Assembly (NCBI GenBank): GCA_965178125.1
Contig: OZ237753.1
Span: forward strand, 992,001-1,056,000
DNA length: 64,000 nt
Reading direction: 5' to 3'
Source: Bilabrum cf. latius
Lineage: Eukaryota
Shown here: piece by piece, positions 1-64,000 of the stretch
How positions within the stretch are numbered: position 1 is the stretch's first letter
How the letters are laid out: each line of letters opens with the position of its first letter
Notes under the pieces: generated by a model
Databases searched by the model: none
What the model was told of the DNA's origin: nothing
What the model saw: the letters and a program-made list of their open reading frames with translations, nothing else
Program-made: the position numbers and the translations under genes

Positions 1-2599
1 CAGTGGTCCACGCCCGCGCCGTGGCCCTTGCCCAGCACCAGCTCGGGGGCAAGGTACTCGGGAGTACCGCACAGCGTGTACGTCTTGCTGCCCGCCGCCA
101 GCTTCTTGGCGAAACCCATGTCTACGATCTTGATGAAGCCCTGCGCGTCCAGGAGAAGGTTCTCGGGCTTGAGATCCCTGTAGACGATGCTCTTCTCGTG
201 CATGGCGGCGAGCCCTGCAATGGTGCAGGCCGCGTAGAACTTGGCGTGGTCCGAGGGCAGGCAGCCCGTCTCCTGGTTGGACAGCAGCGTGAACAGCTCG
301 CCCCCCTGGACCAGCTCCAGCAGCATGAACAGAGAGTCCTTGTCCTGGAAGGTTTGGATCAGGCCCAGCACGAAGGGGTGGTTAATCTGCGCCAACACGT
401 CCCTCTCGTACTAGATGTTCTTGACCTGGCCGTACTCCACGACCTGAGCCTTCTGCAGCACCTTGAGTGCCATGGCCTCGCCGGAGGGACCGTGCCGGAT
501 CAGCTTCACCTTGCCGAAAGTGCCCGCGCCCAGGATGCGGATCTGCTCCAGGTCGCTGAACCGGATGTCCGTGCGCAGCCTGGACGTGGTGGTGTCCCCA
601 TCCGCGCCCTCACCCGCCGCTCCAGCCGCCGAGGTCGTCTCCTTTGGCTTGCCCTTCCTGGCCTGCACCTTGGCTAGAGACACGCCCACCGCCCGCTCGA
701 AAGTGGGCTTATCGATGGCCAGCACCGCGGTCTTGTCCTCCGTGGCAGTGGCGGAGGGCACCCTGGAGCCGCCCGAGCCCATGAGCGCCTCGAGGCCGAA
801 GCAAGCACCCGCCTCCACCTTCACGCCGCCGTCCAGCTGCACCGCGCCCTGCTTCACCACCATGAAGAGACCGTGACCCGCGGCGCCCCCAGGCTGCACC
901 ACCTCCCCCGCGGCGAATTCCCTACCCACGAGCGCCGCCACCATGCGCTCCTTCTCCTTGTCGCCCAGGTTGGCCAGCTGGGCCTCCGTGCTCACCACGC
1001 GGATGCCCAGGTTGTGGTCCAGCACCTCCTTCAAGGGACCCAGCAGCTCCGTGAATGCCTTCCGGTCCAGCACCATGCACTTGCAGCTCTCCGCGGCCAC
1101 CACGTCGGCCGCCCTCGGCTCGTCCAGGAGCAGAGCCCTCTCGCCGAAGTAAGCACCCGTGGGCAGGGCGAGTTCCTTCCCCTCCGCGCCGATGTTCTTG
1201 CACATGACGCTTCCCTCCTGCAGCATGTAGAACTCCTGCGCCTTGTCTCCGCTCTCGCCCTTGGTGATGATCGTGTCACCGGGCTTGAAGGTCCTCATCT
1301 GCACCGCGTCCGCCACCTGGGCCACCTGCGAGTCAGTGAGGCTCTCCAGGAGGGGTACCTTGCGGAGGCTGGCCACAACCTGCGCCTGCTGGTCCTCCTT
1401 CGTCGAGGCGATCATGTAGCGGAAGGTCACTCGGTCCAGCGCCCACACCCGCGCGGGACCCGCCGCCACCACCGAGGCCGCCCTGGGAGCGTTGTAGAGG
1501 AGCGCCAGCTCCCCGAATGCGTCGCCCACAGTGCGGGAGGCCACCTTGTTGTCGCCCACGAAGATGTCGAAGACGCCCTCCTCCACGACGTACCACTCGT
1601 TCCCGTGGTCTCCCTGCTTGATGATGGCTTCTCCCTTGCTCAGCTTCTTCTCCTTCATGGCCATCACCACGTCCTCGATCTCAGAGGCAGACAGGGAGCT
1701 GAACAAAAAGCCCGCCGCGCCGTCCGGGGACAGAGTCTTGCGGATGATAGACTTGCTGGCCTCTCCCTTGGGATAGACAGGGAGCTTGAAATCCTCTCGT
1801 CGGCTAGCATCGTAAGACTCGGCCATGATCACGCCGCGCTTCTTCTTTGCCTTGCCCGAGGCAGCCCCGCCGGCGGCACCGCTCGGTCGCTTCGCACCGG
1901 CACTGCTCAATCGCTTCGAGCCGGCCGGTGGCTCCCACTGCGTCAAATTCTTCTCTTCGTTCCAGAAAAACACGTCTCCAGACTGCTCGTCAACCTCCTC
2001 GGTCCACCCGGGGGGTAGCGCCCACTCCGGTTCCTTCTTGGGCTTCGAGGGGTCGTCCCACGTGGTTTCATTTGTTTCTTCATTCCCTGCGTATTCGGTG
2101 AGGCTTCATTGACGAGGGCAAACGGGCGTGGCAGTGGTTCATCATGCCAGCGAATCGACATCGACGGGAAACTGTGGCCTTGAGTCTCGTACAGGGGGCA
2201 AAGATGGAATGATTCTGCCTGCCATGACTTGAACACATAGACTAGGAAAACATTATGCCCGAACAAACGACCCTAGCGTGCTTCTGACATGCGACTACTG
2301 AGGGTTCAAGCCCAGCACCGGATCCCGCCAGATCAATCGCGCAGCACACCGGTCGCGAGAGGCACTTCAGTCCTTTCGAGCTCACAGTAGTAGTAATCAC
2401 GACTCTCTTCATCCCAAACAGCCTGCCACTTGCCGGGAAGGCGCGCTGAAATTTCAGCTTCCTGCGAACACCAAGCGGACCCAATCACGACGCGAATCGT
2501 GGTGCGAATGCCTGCTCCCGCAGAGCGATCGCAGTCAACCCAAGCAGCGGAATAGAAATTTTATATTATAAAGAATGATAAACATACCTTATCGGCCAT
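1..2599 (-). CDS. cGMP/cNMP-dependent protein kinase (PKG-like) with two N-terminal WW domains; 3' end runs off the window
   Basis: Exons 2599-2588, 2461-2386 and 2086-<1; introns 2587-2462 (GTATG..CAG) and 2385-2087 (GTGAG..CAG). Spliced N-terminus MADKEAEISARLPGKWQAVWDEESRDYYYWNEETNETTWDDP (WW1), then LPPGWTEEVDEQSGDVFFWNEEKNLTQWEPP (WW2). cNMP domains FGELALLYNAPRAAS and FGERALLLDEPRAAD plus a degenerate third. Kinase motifs LGAGTFGKV, ALK, YRDLKPEN, DMGFAK, TLCGTPEYLAPE. One in-frame TAG (411-413) lies just before the alphaC Glu (QVKNI*YERDVL) and the frame continues. Confidence 0.9.
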
Positions 2600-2750
2600 T
2601 GTATCAGCGCACAGATACTCGGACTGGCGCCAGACTGAGATCAAGGGCCGACATGGATCGGTTGGGGCCTCGTGGCGCCGCACACACGTCGCAAGCACGA
2701 GGTTCCGCAATTGCAAGCTGGAAGGTATACTACCCGCTTGCTGATATGCG

Positions 2751-3311
2751 ATGGCAGGAATGAGCATTCGGATCAAGGTGAGGATTATACCATCCCGCCC
2801 CCGTTGGAGCTGGCAAGCAGTAGAGCTCTCTGATATCTCTGTTGGTGACTGGGCTGAGTCCTTTTGCGCCGAGCCAGCGATAGTCATGCTACGAGGCGTA
2901 GAGGTACCATTGGTTGCGCCAGTATCATTGCTCCAGAATAATGACTCTGTGACATTGGTGGAAGCGAAGTCGATCGGAATGCCGGCTTGGAAACGGACAA
3001 GACGCGGCTGCAGAGCAGGGGCAGGGCGCAAACGCAAGAGGAGGCCTCAGCCAGGTGTAGCAGGCCCGTGCAAGCACGATGGCAGTGCTTTGTCCCAATG
3101 TGATAAGCCAGCGATTGCATGCTTCAAATTACAACCGCCTGAGCAGCCTGCAAAAGACAAGATTGCGGCAGCCACTGTTGCCGCTGCAAGCAGCGGCACG
3201 TCCAGTCGCAAGAAGGCCGGCCGATCCCACTTGAGCATGGCAGCAGCCATGGCATCATTTGGAGCTATGAAGTTGTAGGCGCACGGGCGTGGTCCGCCAC
3301 CGCCAAGCTGA
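2751..3311 (+). CDS. small basic protein with possible coilin-N-like N-terminal domain
   Basis: ATG 2751, in-frame TAG 3276-3278, TGA 3309-3311. N-terminal IRIKVRII..WSWQAV...LRGVEVPLVAPVSLLQNNDSVTLV recalls the coilin N-terminal pattern and is followed by NLS-like RKRKRR. Domain call by eye only. Confidence 0.45.
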
Positions 3312-3511: not shown

Positions 3512-5499
3512 TCACCCCCGCACCTTGCCCTCCACTGCCCCGCCCCGTCCTCGCCCCCGCCCCCCCGCACCCACAAGCACGACACCCCCACCGGCACTGC
3601 CCCGCAACTGCGCCACCGCCGCGGCCGCCTTGGGTCCCCCCAGCGCCACCCTCGGGTCGAGCATGGCACCCGGCAGGTCGGCAGCCCCGGGGGCCCGCCG
3701 CGCCGCGATCCCCAGCCGCGACGTGTGCCCCAGCGGGGCGGGGCCCATGGCGCTGGCAGCCGCTGCCCCTATCCTGCCTGTGCCCCTGCCCCTGCCCCCG
3801 CGCCTGCCTGTGCCCCCTGCCCTGCCGCCAGCGCCACCAGTGGCAGCGCCCGCGCGGGCCGTGCTGCCGGCCCCCGCGCCGACCGTGCGGCGCACCGCCG
3901 CCTTGGCCACGGCCTCGCCCAGCGACCGTGTGCCCGTCATGGCCGGCACGGGCACCTCGCCCATGCCCGCTCCAGGGGGCAGCGAGGGCCCGTCCAAGAG
4001 GTGCCTGAACCCCAGCTCGTCCGTCTTGACACCCGCCCGCTGCAGCCTAGTCTCGCAGGCGCCTACCACCTCCCTCAGCCGGTCCTCCACCCTCCTCAGC
4101 TCCCCCTCCAGCTCGGCCACCGCGTCGTCCTTCGCCCTCACCATCGCGTCCACGCCCTCTTCCACCTGACCCGTGGCATCCGGCTCCAGGTCCGCCTGCC
4201 GCAGGGTCTCCCCCAGCTGGGCCATCTTCTTCTCCAGCTCGTCCCCCGCTGCATCCAGCTTCTTCTCCAGCAGCAGCCTCCGGAACCCGCTCTTCTGCTG
4301 GACGTCGTACAGCGCGCCCACGAACTTTTTCTGCAGGTCATCTCTCTCCTGCTTGAGCTTGCCGTGCCTCTGCCGCAGGAGCTCGTGCTCCCAGCGGAGG
4401 GCGTTCACGCGGCTCTCCACGCTGACGATCTGCTCCTTGTGACCCCGCAGCTGCTCCAGCTCCTCCAGATAAGTGTCCCGCTCCTGCCGCAGCCTGCGGG
4501 ACTCCTCCAGCGCCCTGGCCAGCGGAGCGGACATCCTCTTGTTCTCCTGCGCGATGCCCACGATGCGCTTCTCGTCGGCCGCCTCTTTCTTGCTTAGCTC
4601 TGCCACCTCCTCCTTCTTGCTCTTGATCATGTCCATGTTCGCCTGCGTGATGTCTCCGTAGTACGACCGGATGTCCGCGAAGGCCTGGTCGTGCGCCTGC
4701 AGCAGCCTCGCGATGTGCTTGGCCTTGCGCTCCTCCACTCGCCTGACCTGGTCCTGGCGCCGCTGGAACAGCTCGCGGCGGGTCTGGGCGAGCACCGTCT
4801 CGTACTGGGCAGCGAGCTCTCTCGACTCTTGTTCGAAGGAGAGTCGCATGCGGGTGAGAGCCTTGTTGTGCTCCTGCGGCAGGGGGAGCGGGGGAGAGGG
4901 AAGGGGGACGGCACCGAGGGGAGTGACACAGGGTCGCGGGGTGGGCAAGATTCAAAGCTCTCTAGGCAGCGGACGCGATACTTGCGTGCTACTACGACGA
5001 GATAACTCACCAGAACTGCGTCTCGCTTTCTGGCCTCATGGGCGGCTTCGCGTTCCCGAAGCTGGGCCTCCATGGCTCGCAGGTCCTCGCGCAGCTCTGC
5101 TTCACTTTCGCGCTGGGCATCCTGCGTGAGCTTCAGCGACACGACCCCGTCTGTTTTGGACTTTGTAGCTTCTCCCTGGTGCTCGAACAGCAAGTGCTTC
5201 ACGCGCTGCTTCAGCTCCTTGATTTCGACTTGCATTCGCTCGTCTGCATCCTGCAGCTCGCGCTCCTTGTTTCTCAGAGTAGACTTGCGGTCCTCCAAAT
5301 CCTTTTTTGCTATGATCCAAAAATGATTGAGCTTGTCTTTCTGCAGCAGATACTCGTTGTACTTGGCCTCTTCGTCCTCTTTTTGCACAAGCGTACTTTG
5401 GCAGTGATCTGCAAGGAGAAGCCGCTCCATCTCGGCCTTTTCGGCTGCCTCCTCCTCCGGTGACTTCTTCTTTTTACCCTTTTTACCCTTCTTTGGCAT
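3512..5499 (-). CDS. GAS8: dynein regulatory complex subunit 4 / growth arrest-specific protein 8
   Basis: Exons 5499-5011 and 4873-3512; intron 5010-4874 (GTGAG..CAG). MPKKGKKGKK start; motifs KDKLNHFWII, VEIKELKQRVKHLLFEHQ, HDQAFADIRSYYGDIT, VQQKSGFRRLLLEKKL; Gly/Ala/Arg-rich tail; TGA stop; no internal TAG. Confidence 0.92.
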
Positions 5500-5655
5500 G
5501 TTGCAAGCGTAGCTCTCTCGAAATCCTGCAGTTGCTGCAAAACGGACAGATTCAAAATGACACGCTACTCATAATTAAAATGAGATTTGAGCTTGCGACC
5601 GGTGGATGATTTCGATGGCAACGCCCTTTCGTGCGCATTCGCGTGCTGAGTTACC

Positions 5656-7425
<1,770 letters not shown>

Positions 7426-7990
7426 GAGGGACCAGCAGGTGATGTGATTTCCCTGCAAAGGGAAAGGAGGCTAGGCGGAGGGGGGGCGGAGGGGAGGTGT
7501 AGGGGGTTGAGGGGGGTCGAGGGCAGGCTGCCGGCGACGGCGCCTGCTCGGGATGGGAGCTGGAATCGCTCTACTTCGTGCGTTTGGGGGTGGTGTCGCA
7601 TGCTGTGTGTTGGCTTGCGTACGTCCGCAGCGCGACCGTCAGTCTCGGTTTCTCGCAGCCCCGTGATCCGGTGGGATCCGCGGTGGATGCAGTTGCCGTG
7701 GGGGCCGGTCGCGCGCGAGGCGCAAGGTCTGGATCGATGATATGTATGTCTTCGTGAAGTAAGTTACGTCTTCAGCTGTACCTGAGCCAGCCTTTCCGGC
7801 CGTGCCACAGCTTCAAGTGCATCGCGAGGGGGGGCAAGACTGCGTTGTCTTTCCAATGTTGCAACCTCACCTGCGGCCACCCAGATCGGCAACTCGGAAT
7901 CGTAGCTTCGCACGCTCCGCTCTCTGCGGCGCCACTCGCAGAGGCACATCAAGCCTGGCAAATAAATTTGCAATAGAACAACTTGACATT

Positions 7991-10900
7991 ATGGCGTCTG
8001 GTGACGACCGGCGCTCTAAGGCTGCAGAGGCAGCGAAAATCCTAGAGCCGGACAAGAAGCTAACACAAGAGCAACGGCTACGTCTATTTATCCGCGTGGG
8101 CATACAAGGAAATGCAGAGACGTACAAGCAGATTCCGCGCATCAAGATGACAAAAATAAATTTGGACAGGGTGTTCGAGATGGATGTGGCCTTTCTGCAG
8201 GAAGAGTCTAGCGGAGCTGCCCTGTGGCCGCCGCAGTGGAAAGAGCTGTGCTAGCCACCCCCCGAAATGTACTATGTGCGTCCAAAGTACACCCCTATGC
8301 TAGATCCAGATGCTCTAGAAGAAGAAGAGTACCGCGGACAAACTTCGGTGTTTGTCGAGAATGCGCCGCCGGAATGCGGCGAGGCCGAGCTGCGAGCCTG
8401 GCTGGTGGAGGGCATTGCGAACGACGACCCCGAGGTGATTGCGGCAAAGCTAGAGATCGAAGATAGAAATGCACAGATCAAAGCCATTGAGGGCGTCCTG
8501 AGAGCCGACGCGTCTCATGATGTAGACATGGCGGACGACCAGACGATCGACGGCGCGCTTGGAGAGCTGCAGGGCAGGCTCGGGGGGATGCAGGGCAGGC
8601 TGAGGGGGTTCCGCAGGGATGTGATCCAGCTGAAAAAGTACCTTCATGAAATTTAGGCAGAGAAGTCGGGGGCCGTGGACGACCTCTCGTTCTCGCTGGA
8701 GAAGGTGGACACGTTCCAGGTGGTGGACACGGGCACTTGGAGGGTGCGGTTCACAGATGACGCCAAGGGGAAGCGACTTGCGTACGTGGCGGTGCATAAG
8801 CTTGACTGGGCAGAAGTGAAGGTTGCAAGGCCAGCTATCCCGTCCGCGGGGCCCTGTGTGGCCGGCATGTTCGAGCTGCCGGTCCCTGGGTACACGGTGG
8901 TCGAGGTGAACATGAGGAACGTTCGCGTGGTTCGTCTGCGGGAAGGGAAGGGGATGATCAAATTCGCCGACGACCGCGGGTACTTCTCGGGCGGCTTCTT
9001 GCACGGGGCGCGGCACGGCCCCGGGGTGGAGCTGGGTCCCCGGGGCAAGTTCACCGGCAGCTTCCATCAGGAGTTCAGGAGGGGGCCGGGGGAGCAGGTG
9101 TTCGCGAACGGGGACGTGCTGCGGGCGTCCAGCTGGAGGCTGCGGCCCACGCGGGGCAAGCGTAGCCTCATTCGCGGGGACGAGTACTGCGACGGACAGG
9201 CCCACGGGAACGTGCAGGTGGACTTCGCAGACGGTGCGCGGTTCGTGGGCCTGATGCAGGACGGGCGCGTGAGTGGGGAGGGCGAGTACGAGGACTCGAG
9301 CGGGATCTTCTACAAAGGAAATTTCAAGGAAGGGGCGCTGGACGGGCACGGTAGCATGGTGGCGGGCGACATGACGAGGGTGGGGCTCTGGAGGCAGGGG
9401 TGCCAGCACGGGCGCGGTGTGCAGATCGACCTGGTGCTGGGGAAGAAGAGGGGGCACTTCAGGCGGGGCCTGGAGCACGGTGTCTTCAAGTACAAGTGCA
9501 AGGCGATGGAGGGCAGGATGCGGGCGTACTATTGGAATGGCATGCGGCACGGCAGGGGCGTGCTCAACTACGGGAACATCGGCGGAGAGCAGGAGAGCAA
9601 CGGGAGGCAGGAGGAGGAAGAAGGACAGGGAGATGGGGAATAGGATGGATCAGGGGCAGGAGAGGGCCCCGTTGGGATGCATATCGGCGGGATGTCCACA
9701 GGCAAGGACACTAATAACGCCAGCAAGTAGACAGCCCCTGAGGGCCCGCAGCTGCCCCGCATGGCACTGCCACCGATAGGACCTCCATCCCGGGCTGAGG
9801 GCCAGCCGACTGCCGGCCAGTCGGCGCTGGACTCGACAGCCCGGGCAAAGGCCAAGGCCAGGCAGAGGTACCAGTCCAGGTTCAAGTTCCTGCTTCCACA
9901 CGAGAAACCCACGGGCCCGCAGCTGCCCGGCCAGCGCGCTGATGGCCTGGCCATGTCATCGGTGGAGCTTGGATAGGTGGCTGACGGTGTCCTGGGGCCC
10001 GAGGAGGTGCCTGGGGGAGGGAGAGGGATGGGCAGCATCGTGCGCGTGCCACTGCACGAGGCAGCGATGCACATAGACGAGGGCGCGGGGGAGCTGGGGC
10101 TGCTGGAGGCCGAGGAGGAGGCGCTGGCTCTGGGCGCACCTGTCTCGGGGGCTGCGATGAGGAACAGGAGGGAGCTGGAGCGAATGGGGATCGAAATGGA
10201 GAGCCAGGTAAGCGCAGGGGCGAGGTCGATGGAGCTGCAAGCCCTCGATGGTCTGGAGGCGAGCCTGGACGATGCGGGAGCGGCGGCTGCCCACCGCGGC
10301 TCGGGCATCGATGCGCAGATGTCTCGGCTGGCAAATCAGGAGGCGCTCGGTGTGCTTGGCATGGACGAGTGGGAGGCCCGGGAGTTCAAAGAGAAGCAGC
10401 AGAAAGCCGATGGAGTGGGGGAGTACGACAAGTTCCTGGGTGCTGGAGGGGGCAAGGCCAAGGGCCGGGCTGCGCGCGCCTACCAGGGAGACGTCATGTA
10501 CGAGGGCATTTTCCGGGCGGATCGGGTGCGTGCGGGTGGGGTCATGACCCTCCGGATGGGCCAGCTGGCGCCACACATGCACCATCGTTGGTTTGCGCAC
10601 AACAGCGACAACACCAGGTTCATTGAGCTGGTCGACCTGGCCGACCGGGAGGCTGCACTGCGCAAGGGGAGGGACAGGACATTGAGACTGTCGCATGCTG
10701 GAGCGCTGGCCAAGAGGCGCAAATAGGAGGCCGAAAACAGGCGGAGTTTCGCGTACTGGCAGGACAAGGCCAGGAGGATGGACCGGTGGAGGCTTGGGCG
10801 GAACCGCATGCAGCTGAGGGGCGTGAGGGACCTGCGGCTCAAGCTGGCCATTGGAGAGGACGAGTACAGGGGCGACCTCGCGGTGAAGCTGGGGCTGCAA

Positions 10901-11125
10901 GACCTGCAGGAGGGTGCAGATGCCATGAGAGAGGCGCAGGAGAGGGTGGAGAGGGAGAGGGCTGAGGCGGAGGCTCGACGGAGGGCGGAGGAGGGGGAGT
11001 AGGAGGGGCAGAGGGGGCAGGGGGGTGGTAAGGCGGCGCAGTCCAACTATTGGGGAGACGAAGCCGTGCAGGACGAGTGGACCTCTGAGATGCGGCAGGG
11101 GTACGCGAGAGACGATGCGCTGTGA
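7991..11125 (+). CDS. MORN-repeat protein (~1044 aa with TAG read through)
   Basis: One frame from ATG 7991 to TGA 11123, broken only by 7 TAGs (8252, 8654, 9641, 9728, 9974, 10724, 11000). MORN repeats e.g. YFSGGFLHGARHGPG, YKGNFKEGALDGHG, WRQGCQHGRG, WNGMRHGRG; coiled-coil segments. Confidence 0.82.
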
Positions 11126-11302: not shown

Positions 11303-11315
11303 GTCATTCATAGCA

Positions 11316-12034: not shown

Positions 12035-15000
12035 TCAGAGGGTCTCGACGCCCTCTCTGCTGATTCCTTCGTATGGCGTGAGGCCCTCCAAGTTGGTCAC
12101 GGTGTCGTCCGCTCCCTTGTCCTTGAGGTACTCGGCGAGCTCCTCGAACCCATACGCATAGCAGAAATGCAGCGCCGTGTTGCCGGCATTGTTCCTGGCA
12201 TTGATGTTCGCCCCGCGCCGTAGGCACAGCTTGGCGATGCGCCGGTTGCCGTTCTACGCCGCGACGAGCAGCAGGGCGTTCCCGCTCTCGTCCCGGATCT
12301 CGATGTCCACGGCGCCCCCGCCCGGCCCGCCCGTGTTCAGCAGGGCCTCCAGCTCGTCGAAGCGGCTGTTGCGCGCCAGCGAGAACAGCTGGGACACCAG
12401 GTTTGCCTCGTCCCCGGCATCTAGCCGCCGGCCGTCACCCCCCGCAGCCCCCCCGCGTGCGGGGCCGCCCGACCCAGCGCCCAGCCCGTCCTCGTCCTCG
12501 TCCCGAGGCATGGACGAGCCGAGCCCGTCCCCGGGGCGGCCGATCTGCGTGACGAGCGTGGTGACCCGCAATCTCCTGCCCGCAGACCAGGGATCGAACC
12601 CCACCGCGGCCCAGTCCTCCACGATACGCCTGGGAGCCACCACACCCAGCACCCTGGCCTTGTTCGTGTTGGGGTCCTGAGGGAGGTAGTCCGCGTGCTG
12701 AGAGGCAGTTGTGGGAGATGTCACGGCCGTCACGAAGCCGCGGGGCAGGCGCGGCTGCATGGACCGCACCGCCAGCCCCCGCTCCGCGGCGTCCATCCCC
12801 GGGCCCGCTGCCTGGGGCACGTACATGTCGCCCGCCCCCGCGGCCCCGTGCCTCTGGTATGGTGCCATCGCGCCCTGCGGCTGGGCGGGGAGGGTGCTCC
12901 CACCCATGCCCCCCCCTCCTCCCCCCCTGGCGTTGGGACCCCTGCTCTCGTCAGGGGTCATGGTGGGCAGCCGAGGCATGTCCGACATGCGCATCGTGCC
13001 CCCTCCCAACCGACTCTCCCCGCGAGCCGCCTCGAGGAGCGTCATCTGCCCGCCATCCCCTCCTCCACCTCCTCGCCCGTCCCCGGTGTCCCCCCCGCGC
13101 ATCCCCTTCACCGTCGTGCCCCTGGTTACCGCGAACGACACCGCCGACCTGGCCCCCGGGCTGTGCCCCTGCACCTCCACGGGGGAGCGGGGGGCAAATG
13201 CGAAGCCGTCGTCCAGCTCGCCGTGCTCGTGATCGTCCTGCTGCCCGGCAGGACCCATGCCACGGTACATGGGGGCGGCCTGCTGCTGCCCGCCCATGCC
13301 ACTGGATCCATGGAAGCGGTGGCCCGGGGGTATCTCGATAGGCGAAGGCTGGAACTCTTGTCCCTGCCCCTGTACCATGCCAGAGCCCACATCCAGCGGG
13401 GGAGGCATGCTGCCCATGCCCGGCACTCGGCTGGCGCCAGGCACCACCAACGGCGACGACCCGCTGGGCAGCTGCAGCCGCTGGCTCTGCCCGTGGCCCT
13501 GTTGCTGCTGCTGCTGCATGCCGATCCCCAGCCCCAGGCCCAGTCCCAGCGAGAGCAAATCGTGAAGGGACTGGCCACCAGCACCCGCCATGGCGCCCGG
13601 TCCCTGGAGGCCCGCCCCAGCTCCGTGCTGCTGCTGCTGCTGCTGCAGCTGCGGCAGCACGGACTGGAGAGCAGAGGCGATTGAGGCTGCCAGCGCTTGC
13701 GGGTCCTGACCTGCAGGTACCATGACCCCCCCGCCCTACCCGCCCGACTCGCCCATATCCATGCTCCCCGGGACACCGACACCGGACATGCCACCCGTGT
13801 AGCCGCCCGACATTCCCATGGAGGCCTGTCCGCCGGCCTCCTCGAGCGATGAGAGGGCCCCTTGCCCCGGTGCCCCCATGGTGGGGGGTCCTGGGGCCAC
13901 CCCCGGGTGCGCCCCCATGTCATGGAGGGCCCCTCCCCCCATGGCGCGGGGCTCCCCAGTGATGCCGCTCCCCGGGGTGGCCCGCTGTGCCACGTCCCGG
14001 AGGGCCCCGTCGGTCCCCGCAATGGCGGGACCGTATCTGCCAGGCCGGATGGTGTGGGGGGCGCGCGCGTCCACGACCGAGGTGCCCTCCCTCGCCGCCT
14101 CCGCCTCAGCGGCGAGTGCAGCGGCCTGCCTCTGCCGCTGCACCTCCGCCTCCCGCTCGTCTGCTGCCCTCGCTTCGTCCTCGTGCGCCTGACGCTCGAA
14201 GCCGGCCGCCTGGGGGGGCATCAGCAGCGGGTTCCCGTCAGGACCCACACCCGCCTCGGAGGGAGCCTGGCGCGCGAACCGCGTGCCCTCCGCCACCACC
14301 ACGGCGCCCGGCTGGCGACCGGGCACGGCGCGGGGCCCCAGAGTAGACACGCTCTTATGCGAGTCCGTGATGCTTGACGCCCCGCCCTTGCCCCCACCCC
14401 CACGCACCGTACTGGCGCCCCCATCCACCAGCCCGTCACCATCCCGCGGGGCCAGGATGTGCTGCCGCATGCGCTCCTGAGTGTAGGGCCCCGCCGACAG
14501 CGTCTCGCCGGGAAGATCAAGCCCGCTCTTGCTGTACCCCGCGGGACCGGCACGCCCGGGGAGGCTCTGCCCTCCCGCCTGCACGGTCCCGTCATCTCCC
14601 ATGATGCCGCTGTCCTCCAGCCCAGCGGCCCCCCGGGGCACAGGGACCATGTCCCCGGGGGCCTCCTCGCCGTTCATGAGCCGCAGCTGCCTCCGATGGG
14701 AGCGCGACGCTTCCGCCTCAGATCGCAAAGTGTCCACCGCGTCGGTCCGAAGGGAACCCCTTGGGGTCAGCAGGCGCTGGTGCACGAAGCTCCCGTCGTC
14801 GTGCCGCGCATAGAGGTCCCTGGGCAGGCTGCTCTCCAGCGAAAACTCGCCCTCAGCGGGCCCGCCCCCGCGCGCTCGCTTCTCGTCCTCCAGCCGCAGC
14901 TGCTACCCGCCCTCGTCCCTCAGCCGCAGAAGCGTCTCTTCCTCCTCCTCGGCGCCCTCGTCCGGGTCCGGCAGCGGCGGCAGGGGTGGCTCCCAGTACG

Positions 15001-21592: not shown

Positions 21593-21774
21593 TTTTGCTG
21601 CGTTTTCCAAAACCGATACATGCATTGTACAGTGTTGATTCGACAGACCCTCGAAATCTGGTATAACTTGGGACCCGTTGGGACAACCAGGAGCTGCAGC
21701 TGCAGCAGTAGCCAACACCCCTGTTCATTGTCACAAGGCAAGATTCAATCAGTCAATTATTGTGACTTATTGCG

Positions 21775-24038: not shown

Positions 24039-24075
<37 letters not shown>

Positions 24076-40611: not shown

Positions 40612-40680
40612 CAAAAATGAGCATGAAGATAATTAAGTGTCCAGATGCCGTAGATCACAAAACTCAAAGCTTGAGTATCA

Positions 40681-44745: not shown

Positions 44746-44928
44746 GAGGAAGGTGCCAATACAGCAGACATCGCGTATGATAGTGTGACTAGTGCGACAA
44801 CGGACACCCAAATGTGCAGCTTAAATTGGGCCAAACTCCGGCATTTGTCACTGCAGACGGGTCTATGGCCTCTGTCAGTAGTGACGAACTAGATGATTCG
44901 CTTAATGACGGAATAAGTGAGCGATATC

Positions 44929-46859: not shown

Positions 46860-47044
46860 CCAGTGCTGTCACCTATAGGTCATTCTGGTCCCATACCAAA
46901 GAACGCTTCCGGTGGTACCCATTCCAGCGCTGCTGCCAGCAGGGTGCAGGGCTGCAACGTGCGTCCTTCAGATTCGGAGTCGCACGCCGGAATCCCCGAA
47001 GCTTGTTGACGTGCGTGTTTCGATTCATTTCCTGTAGTGCTGCG

Positions 47045-50000: not shown

Positions 50001-51427
50001 GCGTGGCAGTGGCTGCATCTGACCCTGGACATGGAGCTGTGCTTGCCACCGTGCTTTGTGACCATCTCGCGCAAGCAGCTAGAATCGTGCTGGCGAGGGC
50101 AGCTGGCGCCCCAGCAGAGCTGTCTGCCGGTGCATCCTCTGCGCTGGGACGTGCTGCCGCCCTTCTTGGCCTGTGCAGAGCAGTGAGTGTGGTGGGGCCC
50201 CCTGCTGCGTGGGCTAGCATGCAGCAGAGTCTGCCGATTCTAGAGGCCATCCTCGATGCGTGGCCGGGGGGTGGCCTCGAAAAGACGGTCGGGCTGTGGA
50301 GTCGAGTGGAGAGTGAGCGCGCCGCCCCTGGCTTGGAGGCGCAGGTGCTGCGAGGCGTGGTCACGGCCAGGAGCAAAGTCAGTGGGAGCGCCGGGAGCGG
50401 GGCGGCGCTGGGGGAAGCCGTGAGACTCGTGGTGGGCAGGGTGGGCTCCACTTGGTCGAACGGCATCGCGGCGCATAAGGCTCGCAGGTGGCGGTCCCAC
50501 CGGCCCGAGTCGTCATCCCTGTGTGGCCAGGGAGGGGCCACTGACTTGCATCAGGGAGGGCGAGTGCTCGAGGCAAACGCAGGGGGGATGGGGGCTTGTT
50601 TGCGGCAGGTGGGACTCATGTACCGCATGCTAGTGCACCCATAGAACTGGCTAGCGGAGCGAAGGCTCGTGAACCGCATCCAGGCGGCAGAAGCGAGCAG
50701 GACAGGCCACGACGGGACGGGCGAAACCGTGCCAGCCGCCTACCCCCTCGCCGATGTGGGCAGTTCGGTGCAGCGGGGCGACTGGCCTACGCCAGTGCCT
50801 GCAGGGCTCCAAGCATCGGCTCAGAAACAGTCGAAACCACCGCTCTCCGCCGCAGTGGCTGCCACTGCTGGAGCGTGGTGGACGAGGGAGGCAACATCAC
50901 CTTCACCGCACGGAGCTGCTAGAGCCCCGGTGAAGCGGCAGACCACTGCTGTACGGAAGGTGGACTCGGATCGGTTCGGCAGGTTCCATTCCATTTGCAG
51001 GCCTCCGTTCTGTGCGCCGCAGCCTGAGCCCGATGTTTCCGGAGGTCTTCCGTTCAGAGCGGCGATGGCGTCGGGGGCTGCTGGTGCGGCGGCTGGGGGG
51101 CGGGCAGGGGCGGAGGCACAAGTCGCTGACCAGCTACAGGCGATGAGGCGCGTGCTCTCGCAACCGGCATGCCTGCCTGTTGCTCTCGCGCGAGCTCTGG
51201 GTGCGGGTGCCGCTGGTGCTGGTCGCCGGAGGGGTGCCTCGGAATCATCGGTCGATCTGTTCGGACAAGGCAGCGGGCTCGTCGCTGCCTCAGATCCGGG
51301 CGCCCCAGGAAAAGACGCACATGATTTTGATCCGTTTGGAGATCATGATTTGGGCGACAATACTTATAAGGCTACTGCCGGAGGGCACGATCCCGATGCG
51401 GACGAGGTGGACTTGCTAGGGTTCTGA
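47045..51427 (+). CDS. DENN-domain protein (putative Rab GEF) with C-terminal endocytic motifs
   Basis: ATG 47045; uDENN-like YFDCIALFG..GKILRSFP; intron 47506-47598 gives IAVVSRVPCQRF; cDENN LLVHALLSERRVLV..LMALLAPLRWAHTAVPWLP..LLAAPQPWFVGM. Seven TAGs (47741, 48545, 48629, 49055, 49463, 49565, 50642). Tail VDLFG, FDPFG, VDLLGF; TGA 51425. Confidence 0.8.
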
Positions 51428-51597: not shown

Positions 51598-54500
51598 TCA
51601 TGTCTCTTCGTCCATGTAGGTTTCCATGGGTGGGCAGGTGCACACGAGGTTCCTGTCACCATACACGTTGTCTACCCTCCCCGTGGTGGGCCAGAACTTG
51701 TTCTGCCGAGACCAAGGGGCGGGGTATGCGCCGTGCTCCCTGGGGTACTTCCTCTCCCACTCGTTTGCCGTAACGACCGCGGCCGTGTGGGGCGCGTGCC
51801 TCAGGGGCGAATCCTCGATGGCATAGCGCCCTTCCTCCACGTCGCGGATCTCCTTGCGGATGAGAATCATGGCGTCGCAGAACCTGTCCAGCTCAGCGCG
51901 GTCCTCCGACTCGGTGGGTTCGATCATCAGAGTCCCGGGCACAGGCCAGCTCATGGTCGGCGCGTGGAACCCGTAGTCGATGAGTCGCTTGGCCACGTCC
52001 TCCTCGGTGACCCCCGCGGCCTTGAATGGTCGCAGGTCCACAATGAACTCATGGGCCACCTGTCCCTTGTCTCCCCGGAACAATACCTTGTAGTCGTTCT
52101 GCAGCTTGTGGGCCATGTAGTTTGCGTTCAAAATGGCCAGCTGGGTGGCGCTCATGAGACCCTTGTCGCCCAGCATCTCGATGTACATCCACGAGATGGG
52201 TAGAATCAGCGAGGATCCATACGGGGCAGCAGACACTGCTCCATCCCTCTTGGGGGTCACGTTGTCGCCGTCGCCGCCAGTGGGCACCACGGGGTGACCC
52301 GGCAGGTACGGGGCAAGGTGCTTGGCCACCCCGATGCTGCCCACGCCCGGCCCTCCGCCTCCGTGGGGGATGCAGAACGTCTTGTGCAGATTCAGGTGGC
52401 ACACATCGGCTCCGATGCTGCCCGGGGACGTGAGGCCCACCTGTGCATTCATGTTGGCTCCATCCATGTACACCTGCCCGCCCCTCTCGTGGATGAGCGC
52501 GCACACGTCCTGGATGCCCTCCTCGAACTTGCCGTACGTGCTGGGGTACGTCACCATGAGGGCCGCCAGGTTGTCCTTGTGCTTGTCTGCCTTGGCCAGC
52601 AGGTCATCCATGTCCACATTCCCCTCGCTGTCGTTCTTCACGACCACCACCTTCATGCCTGCCATCACTGCGCTCGCGGGGTTGGTGCCGTGGGCCGACT
52701 GCGGGATGAGACACACGTTGCGGTGCCCCTCCCCGTTCGCCTCGTGGTAGGCCTGGATGCACTGCAGACCCGCGTACTCGCCCTGGGCCCCGCTGTTGGG
52801 CTGTTGCGATACTGCGGCGAACCCAGTGATGGTGGCGAGGTGCTCGGCCAGCGAAGAGATGAGCTCGTGGTACCCTGCCGCCTGGTCCGTGGGTGCGAAG
52901 GGGTGCATGTCGGTGAACTCGCGCCACGTGACGGGCATCATCTCGGCGGTGGCGTTCAGCTTCATGGTGCACGACCCCAGCGAGATCATGCTGTTGCACA
53001 GGGACACGTCCCTCATCTGCAGCTCGTACAGGTACCGCAGTAGCTGCGTCTCGCTGCGATGCGTGTTGAACACGGGGTGCGTCATGTACTCCGACTGGCG
53101 ATCCAGGCCACTGCCCCACGTCATGGCCTCGGGAGCGCACGCTGCTTCCGCGAGCCTCTCGAAGGAGCTGCCGGGAGCGAGGGGGTCTGATTCATCGATC
53201 ACGGCAGGGGAGCCGAAGACCCGCAGCAGCTCGACCACATCAGCGGCCTGCGTTGTCTCATCCAGGGCAATTCCCACCCGGTGTGGCTCCTCGTTGCCTT
53301 CCAGCGGCTCCTCAATGAGCCTAAGGTTGTACCCAGCCGCGCGCGCATCTCCCACCAGCTGCTCCGCCGTCCGCCCAGTCGCGGACGAGGACACGTCCAC
53401 GTCGAGCGTGTCGAAGAACCCGCGGCCCAGGGAAATGTCGCAGCCTGCCTCGCGCAGACCAGCAGCCAGCACCAGAGCCTGTGCCCTGACCCTCTCGGCG
53501 ATTGCACGGATGCCCTCGGGCCCGTGGTAGATGCCGTACGCGGCTGCCATGTTGGCGAGCAGAGCCTGCGCTGTGCAGATGTTGCTGGTGGCTCTATCTC
53601 TCCGGATGTGCTGCTCCCTCGTCTGCATGGCCATCCGCAGTGCCCTTCCGTCCTGCGCATCCTTGCTTACGCCAATGATGCGCCCCGGCATGCGCCTCTG
53701 GTGCTTGGTCGTGGTGGCCAAGAAGGCTGCGTGCGGGCCGCCGTACCCCATGGGCACGCCGAACCGCTGCGCCAGGCCGACTGCGATGTCTGCGCCCCAC
53801 TCCCCGGGGGGCGTCAGCATCGTGAGAGAGAGCAGATCGCAGGCAGCCACGACGAGCGTCTTGTGCTCCTTGGCCGCCGCTGCCACCTCCTGCAGGTTGG
53901 TGACGTGCCCGTATGTGTTGGGGTACTGCACCAGCACGCCGCTGTACTCGCCGCTGGAGAACTTGCCGCTCTTGGCAGCCGCATGCACGTCACCCACGTC
54001 GATGGTGATGCCAAATCCCCTGGCTCTGGTCTGCAGCAGGGCAATGTTTTGCGGGTGGCAGTCCTCGGCCACGAAAAACTTGGAGCGCTTCCCGTTGAAC
54101 ACGCCGTGGCAGAGGCTCATCGCTTCCGCTGCGGCTGTGGACTCGTCCAGCAACGAGGCGTTGGACATGTCCATGCCAGTCAGGTCCGCCACCATGGTCT
54201 GGAAGTTCAGGAGCAGCTCCAGCCGGCCCTGGGAGATCTCGGCCTGGTACGGCGTGTAGCTCGTGTACCACGCCGGGTTCTCGAGCAGGTTGCGCTGGAT
54301 CACCGCGGGGGTCACAGTGCCGTTGTAGCCCATCCCAATGTACGACTTGAGCACGACGTTCTTCTCAGCGATCTTCCTCAGCTTGGCGAGGGCGGCCTGC
54401 TCCGTCATGGGGTCCTGCAGCCCGAGCGGCGTACCGAGCCGGATTCGGGCGGGAACGGTAGCATCTGTGAATTCTTCGAGCGACGTGTACGAACCGGCTA

Positions 54501-55130
54501 CCTTCAGCATCTCGGCAAATTCGTGTGGTCGTGGCCCGATGTGCCTCCCTTCAAATGCATCTGGCTGTGGCTCCAGCCGGGCAACTGCCGGACTGCGTGC
54601 AGGGCCTGACGGCGAAGCGGCCGCCGCCGACATAGAAGCTACCTGATTGGTCCATCCCTGCAACGATTGCATGAAATAGTAGAATGAATGAACTACAGCG
54701 TCTACGGAGGCGGTACATGGACCTGTCTTCCCACAACAAGATCTGGAACAGTGACGCACGCACTTTCGCGCCGGTCCCCTGGCACACGATGCAGGATTGT
54801 TAAGGATACGTTTTAGCGTCCAACCATAATATATACCATAGTTAATCAACACAGAACCAGCCAAATCACAAACGTCGGCATCAATTAGCATTCAGATCCA
54901 CCCGGCGAATCGAGGAACTGACGGGCGCAATTTCGAGTCTGTTGACGCGTCAATTGTTTGCATTTCAAAACAAGCACCCCGCAAATCGGTACGCAATAAC
55001 AATTATATGCCTACCATGACCTGTCAACGCAATAGGAGTAACTAACCAGCGGGAGCGCGCGAGTAATCCGGGACGGAATCTTCGACAGTGCCCTCGCAAG
55101 CGACGCAGATCGAGACTGGAATCTGTACAT
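51598..55130 (-). CDS. GLDC: glycine dehydrogenase (decarboxylating), glycine cleavage system P protein, mitochondrial
   Basis: Main exon about 54657-51598 with [56 protein letters not shown]-lysine [18 protein letters not shown] and [18 protein letters not shown]. Probable exon 1 at 55130-55047 ([28 protein letters not shown], transit-peptide-like, GTTAG donor); micro-exons between them not excluded. No internal TAG. Confidence 0.95.
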
Positions 55131-55461: not shown

Positions 55462-57109
55462 TCATGAAAAGCGGGGGTCGCCGCGCCCCCCTCCCACGCC
55501 ACTGCCAGCCGGAGCGTATGGCTAAGTGGGGTCGTAAGCATCCATTCCACCGCTGGACGAACTAGCGGACACAGGGTAAGCTGCTGAAGACGAAGACGAG
55601 GCCATCGGCGCAGACCCTATCGGGTAGGCCTGGGAGCTAGTCGGTTGGGGTGCAGCGTACTGCATTGTAGGTGGGCCTCCATGCTGCTAGCCCGATGATT
55701 CCTGCTAGCCCGGATGCGGAGGGTGATGCCCACTGGACGGAGGCATGTGCTGCGGGGGCGGGCCCTGGGGGTATGGGCTTGGGCCCGGGCCACCGCCTGG
55801 TGCACCATTCGGGGGCGGGCCCTGTGGATACTGCGGTGCCTCGTATCGGCGCTGGTACCCGTCAGGCCCAGCCTACTGGTGCTGGTGGTGGTACTAGGGT
55901 GGGGGTCCCTGCGGGGGCTGCTACGGAGGCGGGCCACCGGACTGGTACGACGGCGGAGGCAGGTGACGCTGCTCCTGCTGCGGTGGCGGGTGGCTAGGGT
56001 GGAGTGGCTGCGGCTGGCGCGGGGGCGGGCCGCCATGGCCCTGGGGCGGGCCTGTGTGAGGCCCCGCCGGAGGAGGGTATGCCGGGGGCGGGCCGCCGCT
56101 ATGGTAGGCAGCAGAGGAGTGTCCATAGCCGTTGTGCCCTGGTCGCGGAGGGCTCGATGCGGCTGGCTCCCTGGGCGGCGCGCCTCTGTCGATGCGAGAG
56201 GTGCGCTCGTCCATCTCGGTGTCCAGGGCAGCAGCGGCACGGAAAGCCGCCGGACTCTGTTGCATGGTCTATTTGGCGAAGCTGAGCATAAGCCTTCTGC
56301 ATTGCCCGCGCTCCGCCCCTGCCTCCCTCTGCGCATCTCGGTAGTCGAAGAGGTATCCGTCCAGAGCAGCAAGGGCCGCCTAGGCCTGCGGGATGCCAGC
56401 AAACTCCACGAAACACATCATTTTGGCGGATGGTCCGGCGCCTCCATCCCCTTTAGGCTTGAGCCTGACCTCGACAAGCCCTCGGAACGGCCGGAAAATG
56501 TCTGCGGTTGTCACAGGCCTTCGGAAACACTCAATACGATTCCAGACAAAATTTGGATAAAAACAATAGCCAGTCCATATATCTCACGTGAAATTTCGCG
56601 TTCAGTGGCATCTGTTGGCACGTTCTGTACGAACAGCGTTGGACTCGGTGCGCTTGCACGAGGTCGGCTGGTAGATGGCTCGCGCCTGTAGCTGCTCATC
56701 TCGCTACGCGGTCGTTTCGCTGGCCTCTCTTCGCGGCTCTATGGCTGACCCTTAGCCTTGGCGTATTGTATTCCTGCGATCGAAGAAACGATTGCCGGGC
56801 TGGCCAAATACGAATGTCAAGAGTGATAGCCCGCGATACATCGCACATCCTTTGGATGTCTCCACATGCCGTCTCACGGATTCCGTCATGAGCATCGGAA
56901 AGCTTGAATCCGTCCAGTTTCTCCAAGGCGCTTGTGGCCTGAGCTACTGAGTCAAATTCCACAAATCCCATCTTGTGTCCAGTTCTGTTGTTGCGCAGTC
57001 TCGAGGTCTTGTATCCGTTGCACGACCGGAAAACTTTTTCGAAGGCTACTTCTGGAAGATCATCGGGAATCTATCCTACATGCAGGGTTGTTGACGGAGG
57101 TTCTCCCAT
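55462..57109 (-). CDS. tandem-RRM RNA-binding protein (similar to plant nuclear speckle RNA-binding proteins) with Pro/Gln/Gly/Tyr-rich tail
   Basis: Exons 57109-56878, 56773-56588 and 56501-55462; introns 56877-56774 and 56587-56502 (GTGAG..CAG). RRM1 TLHVG*IP...MGFVEF...GIRIQYAK; RRM2 TLFVQNVPTDATEREISHIFRPF...MCFVEF...LSFAK. Ten TAGs (57071, 56739, 56380, 56269, 55921, 55894, 55873, 55705, 55687, 55522); TGA 55462-55464. Confidence 0.85.
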
Positions 57110-57276
57110 GCTTTTTCAAGTTTGTCGTGATTCATCAACGAAATCTGTATTTCAGCATCTTGTACAGTGCTATCTCAGAATGAGTTTGGTTTGCTCCTCA
57201 CCGCAGCTGGGTCCCTCTTGAGGGCAAGAGGCAGCTCAACTGCCCAATCATTTACGCAAGGTTAAAGTTGCTTTCC

Positions 57277-63119
<5,843 letters not shown>

Positions 63120-63370
63120 TGGTTTGGGCGGATGGCAACGCAAATTTTGTTGCATTGAATAAATCCAAGGTGTTCAGTTATGAGGTGCGATTTGTCTGTC
63201 GTGGTGGTTTGGTGATGGCATGGTCTGGAGCATCGACTCGAAGTCGCCGGCCCGAGCCGCGGCGGACTCGGAGCCGAGCGCGGCAATCAAGATCAAGATT
63301 CGTTCGTTCGTTCGCGGTACCCGCTTCAGATTGATCACCTTGGCCTAGGTTTGGGCATGATTCAAACACA

Positions 63371-64000
63371 ATGAAGATCACTATACGGCCATTTCTAGCG
63401 ACTGGTACCGCGCCAGCAGTATCGCTGGACGTTGATAGGCTCTCCACGACAGAAGACTTGCTTGTCGCTCTAGAGCGAAAGATCGGCATCTCCCGATGCC
63501 AAGGGCAATTAAAGACAGCAGAGGGCATGTTGATGCTTCCCGGCTCAACATGCGAACACTGCTGTCTCTCCAAAGGGGGTGAGCTGCAGGTCTCGCTGCG
63601 GTGTCCGTCGTTGCGTTCATCAGACCTGTCTCGGTAGCTTGTTGAGGTCACGCCGGTGCACTTGTCCAAACATGTTGATCCCGATTTGAAGCACGGTGTT
63701 AGGCTATCGCTAGGCTCCACCATACGGCCAGCCGACGGCTTACTATCCTGCCTCGGAGGCAAGGCGAGTGCTGCGCCGAACCCCACTGCCAGTGGCAGCA
63801 AGCTCCGACTCGTGCACTGCCCTGCAGGAGGGATGCCCCGCGAGGTGGAGTGCTCTTTGTCGTATGACAAGTTCTCGCGCACCATTGTGCTAAGACCCAC
63901 CTCGGCGCTCTCTTCGTTCCAGCGGTATCGTGTGCAAGCTATGGAAGGGGCCTTCGCTCGGATCCCGCAGGCAGGTCGAAGGCGAGGCGGGGTCGCTCCA
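63371..64000 (+). CDS. protein with N-terminal ubiquitin-like domain and possible Ig-like domain (partial)
   Basis: MKITIRPF..VSLDVDRLSTTEDLLVALERKIGI..LSKGGELQVSLR resembles a ubiquitin fold. TAG at 63635, then the frame stays open to the window end with SYDKFSRTIVLRPTSALSSFQRYRV (Ig-like beta pattern). Confidence 0.55.

Follow-up and report, generated by a model that had tools for sequence, protein, structure and literature searches.

We find that UAG is an ordinary sense codon in the genes of the 64,000-nt stretch of DNA analysed here (the window; 64.1% G+C). We read TAG as sense because it lies inside conserved domains whose homology continues downstream, and because it is unchanged in spliced contigs; the observation itself is confirmed. 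Alignments with homologues indicate that the codon most likely specifies glutamine. Taken as a whole, the window very probably belongs to the GC-rich nuclear genome of a stramenopile of the Bigyra, in which UAG serves as an ordinary, moderately rare Gln codon while translation terminates mostly at UGA and otherwise at UAA.

The choice of genetic code had a large effect on the reading frames. Under the standard code only three stop-to-stop ORFs reached at least 1000 aa, compared with nine when TAG was treated as sense, three when TAA was, and five when TGA was; at 1500 aa or more, the corresponding numbers were zero, four, zero and one. With TAG translated as Q, the largest frames were 3229, 2745, 2159, 1931, 1356, 1305, 1212 and 1120 aa long. 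TAG occurred 81 times in the 17,816 codons of 13 CDS segments, while TAA and TGA were both absent, bearing out the claim of an earlier reading, made from the sequence only, that the exons hold no internal TAA or TGA. By comparison, comparable ORFs read in their other two frames contained 304 and 236 TGAs per ∼18,100 codons. The 81 TAGs, together with four in the second exon of the coiled-coil gene and two in exons 1-2 of the two-RRM gene, bring the total to 87 in-frame TAGs in 11 genes (Table 1), and the codon accounts for ∼9% of the Gln-type codons in the window. The sequence-only reading's count, about 92 in 14 of 17 genes, has the right order of magnitude, though it differs from ours in both codons and genes.

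Table 1. Genes of the window, with the evidence for their identity, their in-frame TAG codons and the codon at which each visible frame ends.
Gene	Position	Strand	Identification and structure	In-frame TAG	End
cGMP-dependent protein kinase (PKG)	6..2105	-	Pfam Pkinase 3.9e-49, cNMP_binding 7.9e-44, WW; extends beyond window start	1 (413, inside kinase domain)	
GAS8/DRC4-like flagellar protein	3515..5568	-	Pfam GAS 5.3e-57; two ORF pieces	0	TGA
MAP-kinase-like gene (MAPK)	5500..7425	+	Pfam Pkinase 4.2e-23 (last exon); several exons	0 in conserved exons	TGA
MORN-repeat protein	7856..11125	+	Homologs P0121-P0127	7 (8252, 8654, 9641, 9728, 9974, 10724, 11000)	TGA
Ankyrin-repeat protein (ANK)	12035..21724	-	3229-aa frame, C-terminal ankyrin repeats	12	TGA
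Kinesin, KIF21/KIF4-like	21766..28245	+	Pfam Kinesin 5.7e-100	2 (22738, 26125)	TAA
W/R-rich repeat protein (REP)	28425..36662	-	2745 aa; tandem array, 54-nt x 30.8	16	TAA
TM1212	36973..40611	+	1212-aa frame, hydrophobic C-terminal half; no Pfam family	8	TGA
U1356	40675..44745	+	1356-aa frame of unknown family	12	TGA
Coiled-coil protein (CC467)	44860..46859	+	Introns 44917-45002 and 45450-45663, removed in RNA	5 (spliced frame)	TGA
DENN-domain protein	47040..51427	+	Pfam DENN 1.3e-11; intron 47506-47598	7 (47741, 48545, 48629, 49055, 49463, 49565, 50642)	TGA
Glycine dehydrogenase (GcvP)	51598..54606	-	Pfam GDC-P 8e-182	0	TGA
Two-RRM protein	55464..57109	-	Pfam RRM_1 4.4e-10; P/Q-rich tail; introns 56502-56587, 56773-56876	10	TGA (55464)
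RNA polymerase III largest subunit (RPC1)	57277..63119	+	Pfam Rpb1 domains 1-5; PDB 7a6h_A match 1302 bits; intron 57337-57443	7 (57477, 57540, 59775, 60825, 60999, 61314, 61563)	TGA

Conserved-domain homology runs past the TAGs of RPC1, PKG, the ankyrin protein and the RRM protein, in line with the earlier claim that the frame resumes after each TAG. The final TAG of RPC1 corresponds to residue 1414, and the Rpb1_5 match extends to residue 1663. In PKG the single TAG is residue 565, within the kinase span (520-700), while TAG 3157 of the ankyrin protein falls within an Ank match (3119-3210) and one TAG of the RRM protein lies within RRM_1. The translations also contain a 10-letter motif in RPC1, the kinesin motifs GQTGAGKT, SSRSH and DLAGSE, and YRDLKPEN in PKG, which we take to be the catalytic motifs of these proteins and which are intact, as had been stated before.

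Transcripts retain the codon. Eight GT..AG (or CT..AC) introns were skipped by contigs of sequencing runs X5, X6 and X7, which come from two studies other than those of the DNA runs, and were not skipped by the DNA run X3; six of the eight splice joints were present in all three. No run listed as containing the stretch carries an RNA label (X5 is automatically labelled 'RNA? (probably DNA)'), and the RNA nature of X5-X7 is read solely from the intron-skipping joints. The X5 pieces, which are contigs rather than raw reads, cover 27 TAG codons (seven in RPC1, seven in the DENN gene, eight in exon 3 of the RRM gene and five in CC467) with no other letter at any of them. An RNA contig spans positions 57444-62870 of RPC1, likewise with no other letters, and the CC467 frame with its five TAGs is continuous through two splice joints. 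The same letters were found in four runs from three studies, and of the only two variant places listed in 20 kb neither is at a TAG.

Because the 27 TAGs are unchanged in spliced contigs, editing, splicing-out and assembly error are excluded at those sites, where UAG persists in the spliced mRNA; the confirmation in RNA that the sequence-only reading had proposed comes from contigs from which introns are removed elsewhere. The idea that the TAGs are untranslated, whether they were mistakes of assembly, lesions of pseudogenes, codons edited to CAG in the RNA or parts of spliced-out introns, strikes us as exceedingly improbable overall and is already largely refuted for positions 44001-64000. 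It may apply to a few marginal cases, since local GC3 is low at the 5'-most TAGs of TM1212 (80, 94 and 158) and at one TAG in the MAPK ORF, which may therefore lie in introns or UTRs. Beyond these, the agreement among runs and studies counts against it, and coding sequence free of TAA and TGA is unlike that of pseudogenes.

To what amino acid UAG corresponds is best seen in the 12 of 87 TAG sites that can be aligned to homologs. Over these 12 columns, from three proteins, glutamine scored +10.94 nats and threonine, the next residue, -5.49; the scores of lysine and leucine were -7.47 and -16.13. Among 120 RPC1 homologs, one TAG column has Q in 57 of 106 sequences; a second has Q in 112 of 120, and Leu only once. 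The five filled RPC1 columns together gave Q +5.07 nats, the next residue being D at -0.59, and the mean Q score per column was 1.01 at TAG vs 1.04 at the gene's own CAG/CAA sites. Columns with more than 40% Q made up two of these five, 34% of the true Q sites and 0-5.7% of the sites of other residues. Composition around the TAG sites also ranked Q first of 20, by a method that was right for only eight of 20 control codons and to which we give little weight.

Close relatives offer a second view of the same codon. Two relatives of the DENN protein (P0130 and P0280, 94-95% identical) carry Q at the window's TAGs q323 and q351, two of three aligned sites, and P0130 terminates directly before TAG q629. 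At the third site, q493, the close relative has Ala, which counts against Gln. A homolog search at shorter lengths with the 2745-aa REP protein returned one match only, P0282 (88% identical), which terminates directly before TAG 1179. With Q at two of the window's TAG sites and an ORF stop at another, a relative ∼95% identical shares the trait.

Several columns point elsewhere, as they would if UAG encoded another residue (Leu, Lys, Glu, Asn or Tyr) or were decoded ambiguously by near-cognate tRNAs. In a well-aligned MORN column all five covering homologs have Leu, contrary to Gln, and another has K in five and Q in two of seven; kinases of known structure (PDB) have Lys or Leu opposite the PKG TAG, and four of the five PDB alignments shown have Asn opposite the RRM TAG, although both of these are variable positions that settle nothing. 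Codes with UAG as Leu or as Ser are also on record (PMC11687900). Set against the combined 12-column score, the RPC1 column with Q in 112 of 120 sequences and the Q residues of the close DENN relatives, we regard such a meaning as very unlikely. Glutamine, proposed earlier with enrichment of Gln at TAG columns as a check, is the best of 20 residues, that enrichment is found, and the Leu column of the MORN protein is the one contrary case.

Thirteen gene ends are visible, 11 at TGA and two at TAA, so that the ends are all TGA or TAA as first described, but number 13 rather than 15. Their being TGA or TAA is by construction, as the ORFs were defined by TAA and TGA with TAG read through. The sequence 3' of both TAA ends is non-coding-like. 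These ends, only two of them TAA, and the lack of either codon in frame are consistent with UAA and UGA remaining terminators, as the first reading had held.

The same construction leaves room for UAG to have two meanings set by context, an amino acid within genes and a stop at some of their ends, as in Condylostoma, karyorelicts or Blastocrithidia: a gene ending on TAG would be read through unnoticed. Long low-complexity C-terminal tails, reaching ∼220 aa past the last conserved block in RPC1 and seen in GAS8 too, are what such read-through might look like, but neither of these two tails contains any TAG. TAG and CAG positions along genes did not differ (KS p 0.065), TAGs were spread evenly over gene quintiles (21, 16, 12, 17 and 15), and all four bases followed TAG (T 15, C 24, G 25, A 17), without a special +4 base. 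Considering also that all 13 ends are at TGA or TAA and that non-coding-like sequence follows both TAA ends, we judge a dual use of UAG to be quite unlikely.

The RPC1 tree (FastTree, 42 rows, a single gene) paired the window's protein with a metagenome protein at support 99. The pair lay within a seven-row clade (support 100) that was sister to Blastocystis plus labyrinthulomycetes, and this assemblage was nested in a 32-row stramenopile clade (support 100). Cafeteria roenbergensis is among the homologs of the MORN protein. Together, these sequence comparisons support the organism being a heterotrophic stramenopile of the Bigyra, probably with bicosoecid-like relatives; the stramenopile-like character suggested at the outset agrees with both the tree and the Cafeteria homolog. 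When metagenomes were scanned with RPC1 residues 1-650, 80 loci were kept, none of them a close relative; most were ∼40% identical and archaeal-like. The best segment (L056) was 59% identical, in an intron-rich record with 46.6% G+C.

The window's DNA also occurs, at a low share, in runs that carry the labels of other organisms and of metagenomes, and mis-annotated fragments may therefore already be present in public protein sets. Gene callers using the standard code truncate the proteins of this organism at each TAG; the database fragments P0130 and P0282 are examples.

The code itself (NCBI translation table 15) is already known; what would be new is its host. The literature searched, whose coverage was incomplete and whose supplementary species and code lists may bear on the point, yielded no stramenopile with a reported change of nuclear code. 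We lean slightly towards the view that UAG→Gln in this GC-rich, bicosoecid-like flagellate lineage is the first nuclear code change in Stramenopila, and that at least one sister strain or species has it too while the nearest sampled RPC1 relative apparently does not. That relative (P0001) is a 1768-aa call with no break, in which the TAG rate of the window predicts ∼6 such codons. If this is true, the change would be recent, having arisen while G+C pressure turned UGA into the default stop, a compositional setting opposite to that of the A+T-rich ciliates that usually host such codes. In the parts consulted of PMC5304391 and PMC11687900, UAG=Gln is named for a single fornicate and for a few lineages of ciliates. 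Reassignment of UAG decoupled from that of UAA is rare, and a stramenopile case would be a further independent origin, in a supergroup without a reported nuclear change. A GC-rich case would bear on codon-capture and ambiguous-intermediate models, as well as on the way eRF1 discriminates UAG from UAA.

As to mechanism, UAG would no longer act as a stop and would be translated as Gln. By analogy with other lineages that use this code, the reader may be a tRNA-Gln with a CUA anticodon, one mutation from CUG, or alternatively an efficient near-cognate tRNA-Gln(CUG). The same lineages suggest an eRF1 that has lost recognition of UAG and kept that of UAA and UGA, and an origin that could have been aided by G+C pressure, with UGA the usual terminator and UAG little used. 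Scans of the 64-kb window gave no tRNA genes and no Rfam matches, and the gene for eRF1 lies outside it.

The code described here shares features with four groups of known codes. As in the context-dependent codes of Condylostoma, karyorelicts and Blastocrithidia, a standard stop is translated inside genes; unlike them, two dedicated stops remain and TAG shows no positional or +4 signal. The UAG=Leu codes of the rhizarian exLh and some ciliates, and the UAG=Ser code of Scotinosphaera (PMC5304391, PMC11687900), resemble it in that UAG alone has changed and UAA is still a stop, but differ in the residue, Leu scoring -16.1 vs Gln +10.9 nats over our 12 columns. Table 6-type codes, with both UAA and UAG as Gln, are described in many ciliates, hexamitin diplomonads, some green algae and an aphelid (PMC5304391, PMC11687900). 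They too have a stop captured for Gln, one transition from CAG; unlike them, TAA is found nowhere in our 17,816 codons, ends two genes and is followed by non-coding-like sequence. Closest is the table 15 type, in which UAG is Gln and UAA and UGA are stops, given for Iotanema spirale (PMC5304391) and for Protocruzia tuzeti, Hartmannula sinica and Trochilia petrani (PMC11687900). With these cases the window shares the reassignment of UAG alone, to Gln, the use of UAA and UGA as stops, and the presence of UAG at conserved Gln positions. The hosts are different, a stramenopile here and a fornicate or ciliates there, and so is the setting: 64% G+C with UGA as the main stop (11 of 13 ends) in the window, whereas I. 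spirale and those ciliates have UAA as their primary or dominant stop (PMC5304391, PMC11687900).

The window has a G+C content of 64.1% (57-71% per 4-kb bin) and carries eukaryotic nuclear genes, densely packed on both strands. With TAG read as a sense codon, four stop-to-stop ORFs of at least 1500 aa and nine of at least 1000 aa are found, as against none and three under the standard code, none and three with TAA as sense, and one and five with TGA as sense; the frames with TAG as glutamine measure 3229, 2745, 2159, 1931, 1356, 1305, 1212 and 1120 aa. The 17,816 codons of 13 CDS segments comprise 81 TAG, 708 CAG and 137 CAA, with no TAA or TGA, as the sequence-only reading had stated for exons. 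Read in their other two frames, comparable ORFs hold 304 and 236 TGA and 29 and 34 TAA, and at this frequency of TGA the TGA-free frames of thousands of codons cannot be chance. TAG provides 81 of 926 Gln-type codons (8.7%), its share ranging by gene from 0% (glycine dehydrogenase, GcvP, and GAS8) to 23.5% (RRM exon 3). Once exons set by RNA joints are added, the total is 87 TAGs in 11 genes, of the same order as the approximately 92 in 14 of 17 genes counted earlier; TAG is absent from GAS8, GcvP and the conserved MAPK exons, and a few of the TAGs nearest to 5' ends could be intronic or in UTRs.

Features of the window with their positions (nt; strand in brackets; > marks a splice joint)
Feature	Position	Pfam match (E-value) or remark
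RPC1 (RNA polymerase III largest subunit)	57277-63119 (+)	Rpb1 domains 1-5, 2e-87 to 6e-28
RPC1, part compared with human and yeast	57324-63119	
Kinesin		5.7e-100
Kinesin, hydrophobic stretch	~21940-22060	
cGMP-dependent kinase		Pkinase 3.9e-49; three cNMP-binding stretches 7.9e-44; WW domain
GAS8/DRC4		5.3e-57
MAP-kinase exon		4.2e-23
DENN protein		1.3e-11
Ankyrin repeats		Pfam, end of 3229-aa frame
Glycine dehydrogenase (GcvP)		8e-182
Two-RRM protein		4.4e-10
Ankyrin-kinesin gap	21724-21766	divergent frames
Kinesin and repeat-protein stops	28245-28425	convergent
Repeat protein, 2745 aa	28425-36662 (-)	
W/R-rich repeats	28428-34400 (-)	
Tandem array	34403-36065	54-nt period, 30.8 copies, 99% matches
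Coiled-coil gene	44860-46859 (+)	
Joint	44916>45003	
Joint	45449>45664	
Joint	47505>47599	
Joint	54656>55046	intron 54657-55045
Joint	56501>56588	
Joint	56772>56877	
Joint	57336>57444	RPC1 intron 57337-57443
Joint	63577>63827	
X5 piece, RPC1	57444-62870	
X5 piece, DENN	47599-51078	
X5 piece, RRM exon 3	55046-56501	
X5 piece, coiled-coil exon	45003-45449	
X5 piece, coiled-coil exon	45664-47044	
RRM-GcvP contigs	51481-57100 (-)	

The human and yeast RPC1 structures match the RPC1 frame with 1302 and 1263 bits; relative to both, the frame has two large low-complexity inserts (residues ~645-830 and ~1200-1320) and a tail of ~220 aa beyond the last conserved block. In the 2745-aa protein the tandem array lies towards the N-terminus, where it codes for an 18-aa unit rich in G, A and M; the remainder of the protein is a long run of degenerate W/R-rich repeats that matched no Pfam family at E 0.001 and that we take to be reminiscent of centrin-binding Sfi1 repeats. 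Pfam matches the kinesin motor domain in two stretches, and the in-frame hydrophobic stretch between them resembles an intron left unspliced within the frame. The divergent ankyrin and kinesin stop-to-stop frames lie ~40 nt apart, the convergent kinesin and repeat-protein stops 180 nt.

The stretch 51598-61597 was almost complete in four sequencing runs of one study (X1-X4), and was present in three runs of two other studies (X5-X7) at shares of 0.93, 0.79 and 0.74; 16 further runs (X8-X23), labelled as other organisms or algae/protist metagenomes, held 3-18% of its sampled words and may represent this organism, a relative or conserved segments alone. Contigs of X3 (a DNA run), X5, X6 and X7 were compared with 44001-64000, where those of X3 are colinear with the window and those of X5-X7 omit eight short segments with GT..AG ends (CT..AC for minus-strand genes), six of the eight joints being present in all three runs. 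The X5-X7 contigs are therefore spliced transcripts (the automated type guess for X5 is 'RNA? (probably DNA)'). The X5 pieces over RPC1, DENN, RRM exon 3 and the coiled-coil gene show no other letter and no gap along their whole length, and they take in 27 TAG codons; the only two variant places in the 20 kb (56940 and 60215) are not at TAG. The coiled-coil frame, with five TAGs, continues over two splice joints, and removal of the RPC1 intron connects a first exon that contains an ATG with the conserved frame, a short way upstream of the first TAG. Because these 27 TAGs stand unchanged in spliced contigs while introns are removed elsewhere, editing to CAG, splicing-out and assembly error are excluded for them, as far as contigs, from which rare variants are lost, can show. 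In X5, X6 and X7 alike, one contig connects the RRM gene (stop 55464) with GcvP, a 389-nt intron being spliced; such a contig may represent read-through from one gene into the next, or a 5' leader of GcvP that overlaps the 3' end of the upstream gene.

As to which amino acid TAG encodes, we aligned RPC1 with its 120 best homologs. Two of its seven TAG columns are Gln columns (Q in 57/106 and 112/120 sequences), three are variable and polar (E43/D30/N21/Q7; D48/T23/N22; S/A/P/T), and the remaining two sites fall within lineage-specific inserts. When the five filled columns are scored by profile log-odds, Q is favoured (+5.07 nats; next best D, -0.59), and the mean per TAG column, 1.01, matches that at the gene's own CAG/CAA sites (1.04). 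More than 40% Q is reached by 2/5 of TAG columns, as against 34% of true Q sites and 0-5.7% of sites for each of the remaining 19 residues. In P0001, the RPC1 homolog nearest to the query, three of the seven TAG sites carry Q.

Among 1.84 billion representatives, a full HMMER scan with the DENN protein picked out P0130 (496 aa, 95% identical), with P0280 (552 aa) in the same cluster. Both have Q at the TAG sites q323 and q351 (residues in the DENN frame) and A at q493, so a close relative has CAG/CAA-type Gln at window TAG sites; at q55 a (DQ)n run is two residues shorter in the relative. In the more distant pair P0131/P0281 (50-54% identical), four TAG sites are occupied by Q, D, T and E. P0130 terminates exactly before TAG q629, and P0282, which matches part of the repeat protein at 88% identity, exactly before TAG 1179; since the relative's ORFs are broken at shared TAG positions by a standard-code gene caller, the close relative appears to have the same code.

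The sole clear result against Gln comes from the MORN protein, whose seven homologs (one from Cafeteria roenbergensis) give TAG columns of L 5/5, mixed, K/Q/R with Q 3/7, and K5/Q2. The Leu column, at 8252, has the motif C-L-P in all five covering homologs, Cafeteria included, and is the only aligned TAG site favouring Leu over Gln. A combined score over twelve columns (five RPC1, four MORN and three DENN), leaving out the MORN homolog P0123 as a near-duplicate of P0122 and taking one DENN row per relative, gave Q +10.94 nats, T -5.49, D -6.38, E -7.30, K -7.47 and L -16.13. The kinase TAG aligns with K or L and the RRM TAG with N, both at variable positions. Weaker lines are the Q-rich surroundings of TAGs (e.g. 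QQPqQGQGQ, KRqqqKRR, PPPqQPPQ) and local composition, which ranked Q first at TAG by a method correct for only 8/20 control codons.

Fifteen gene ends, all TGA or TAA, had been claimed; we see 13, with TGA at 11 and TAA at two. The TAA-terminated genes are the convergent kinesin and repeat protein, and the sequence beyond both TAAs is non-coding-like and meets another stop within 17 and 34 codons, respectively. A context-dependent dual use of UAG, as sense and stop, is argued against by the base after TAG, none being special (T15, C24, G25, A17), by an even spread of TAG over gene quintiles (21, 16, 12, 17, 15) and by positions along genes that do not differ from those of CAG (KS p 0.065); dual use keeps some probability because the ORFs by definition read through TAG.

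The window is without 18S, and placement was by a single-gene FastTree of RPC1 (42 rows). The query pairs with a metagenome protein (support 99, 59% identity) within a seven-row clade (support 100) sister to Blastocystis plus labyrinthulomycetes, the whole nested in a 32-row stramenopile clade (support 100). Taken with the MORN-protein homolog in Cafeteria, the tree points to a place in Bigyra close to bicosoecids, in line with the stramenopile-like character proposed before; GAS8/DRC4 and the MORN protein presumably fit a flagellate. P0001 is an unbroken call of 1768 aa despite ~6 TAGs expected at the RPC1 rate of the window (7 per 1891 codons), a hint that the nearest sampled lineage may be without this code.

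The data demonstrate a UAG that stands in frame, is retained in mRNA after splicing and aligns with Gln; a close relative appears to share it. The sequence-only reading of TAG as a sense codon is confirmed by ORF lengths, codon counts and spliced contigs, and its interpretation as Gln is supported. Decoding would be by a tRNA-Gln(CUA) or a near-cognate tRNA-Gln(CUG), with UAG no longer recognised by eRF1; within the 64 kb there were no tRNA genes or Rfam matches. UAG may have fallen into disuse as a stop under G+C pressure and then been captured, a course that UGA at 11 of 13 ends would fit.

Novelty had been made to depend on a literature check, and the literature searched (few subscription journals, no supplements) did not describe a changed nuclear code for any stramenopile, the accessible text of candidate papers having organellar codes or unrelated mentions only. 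The depositors of the assembly may already be aware of the code. The code itself is already known as NCBI table 15: one paper reports UAG=Gln with UAA still a stop for Iotanema spirale, Protocruzia tuzeti, Hartmannula sinica and Trochilia petrani, UAG=Leu for a rhizarian and UAG=Ser for Scotinosphaera (PMC11687900; for I. spirale see also PMC5304391). What we describe is a known code variant in a lineage and a compositional setting where it is unexpected.
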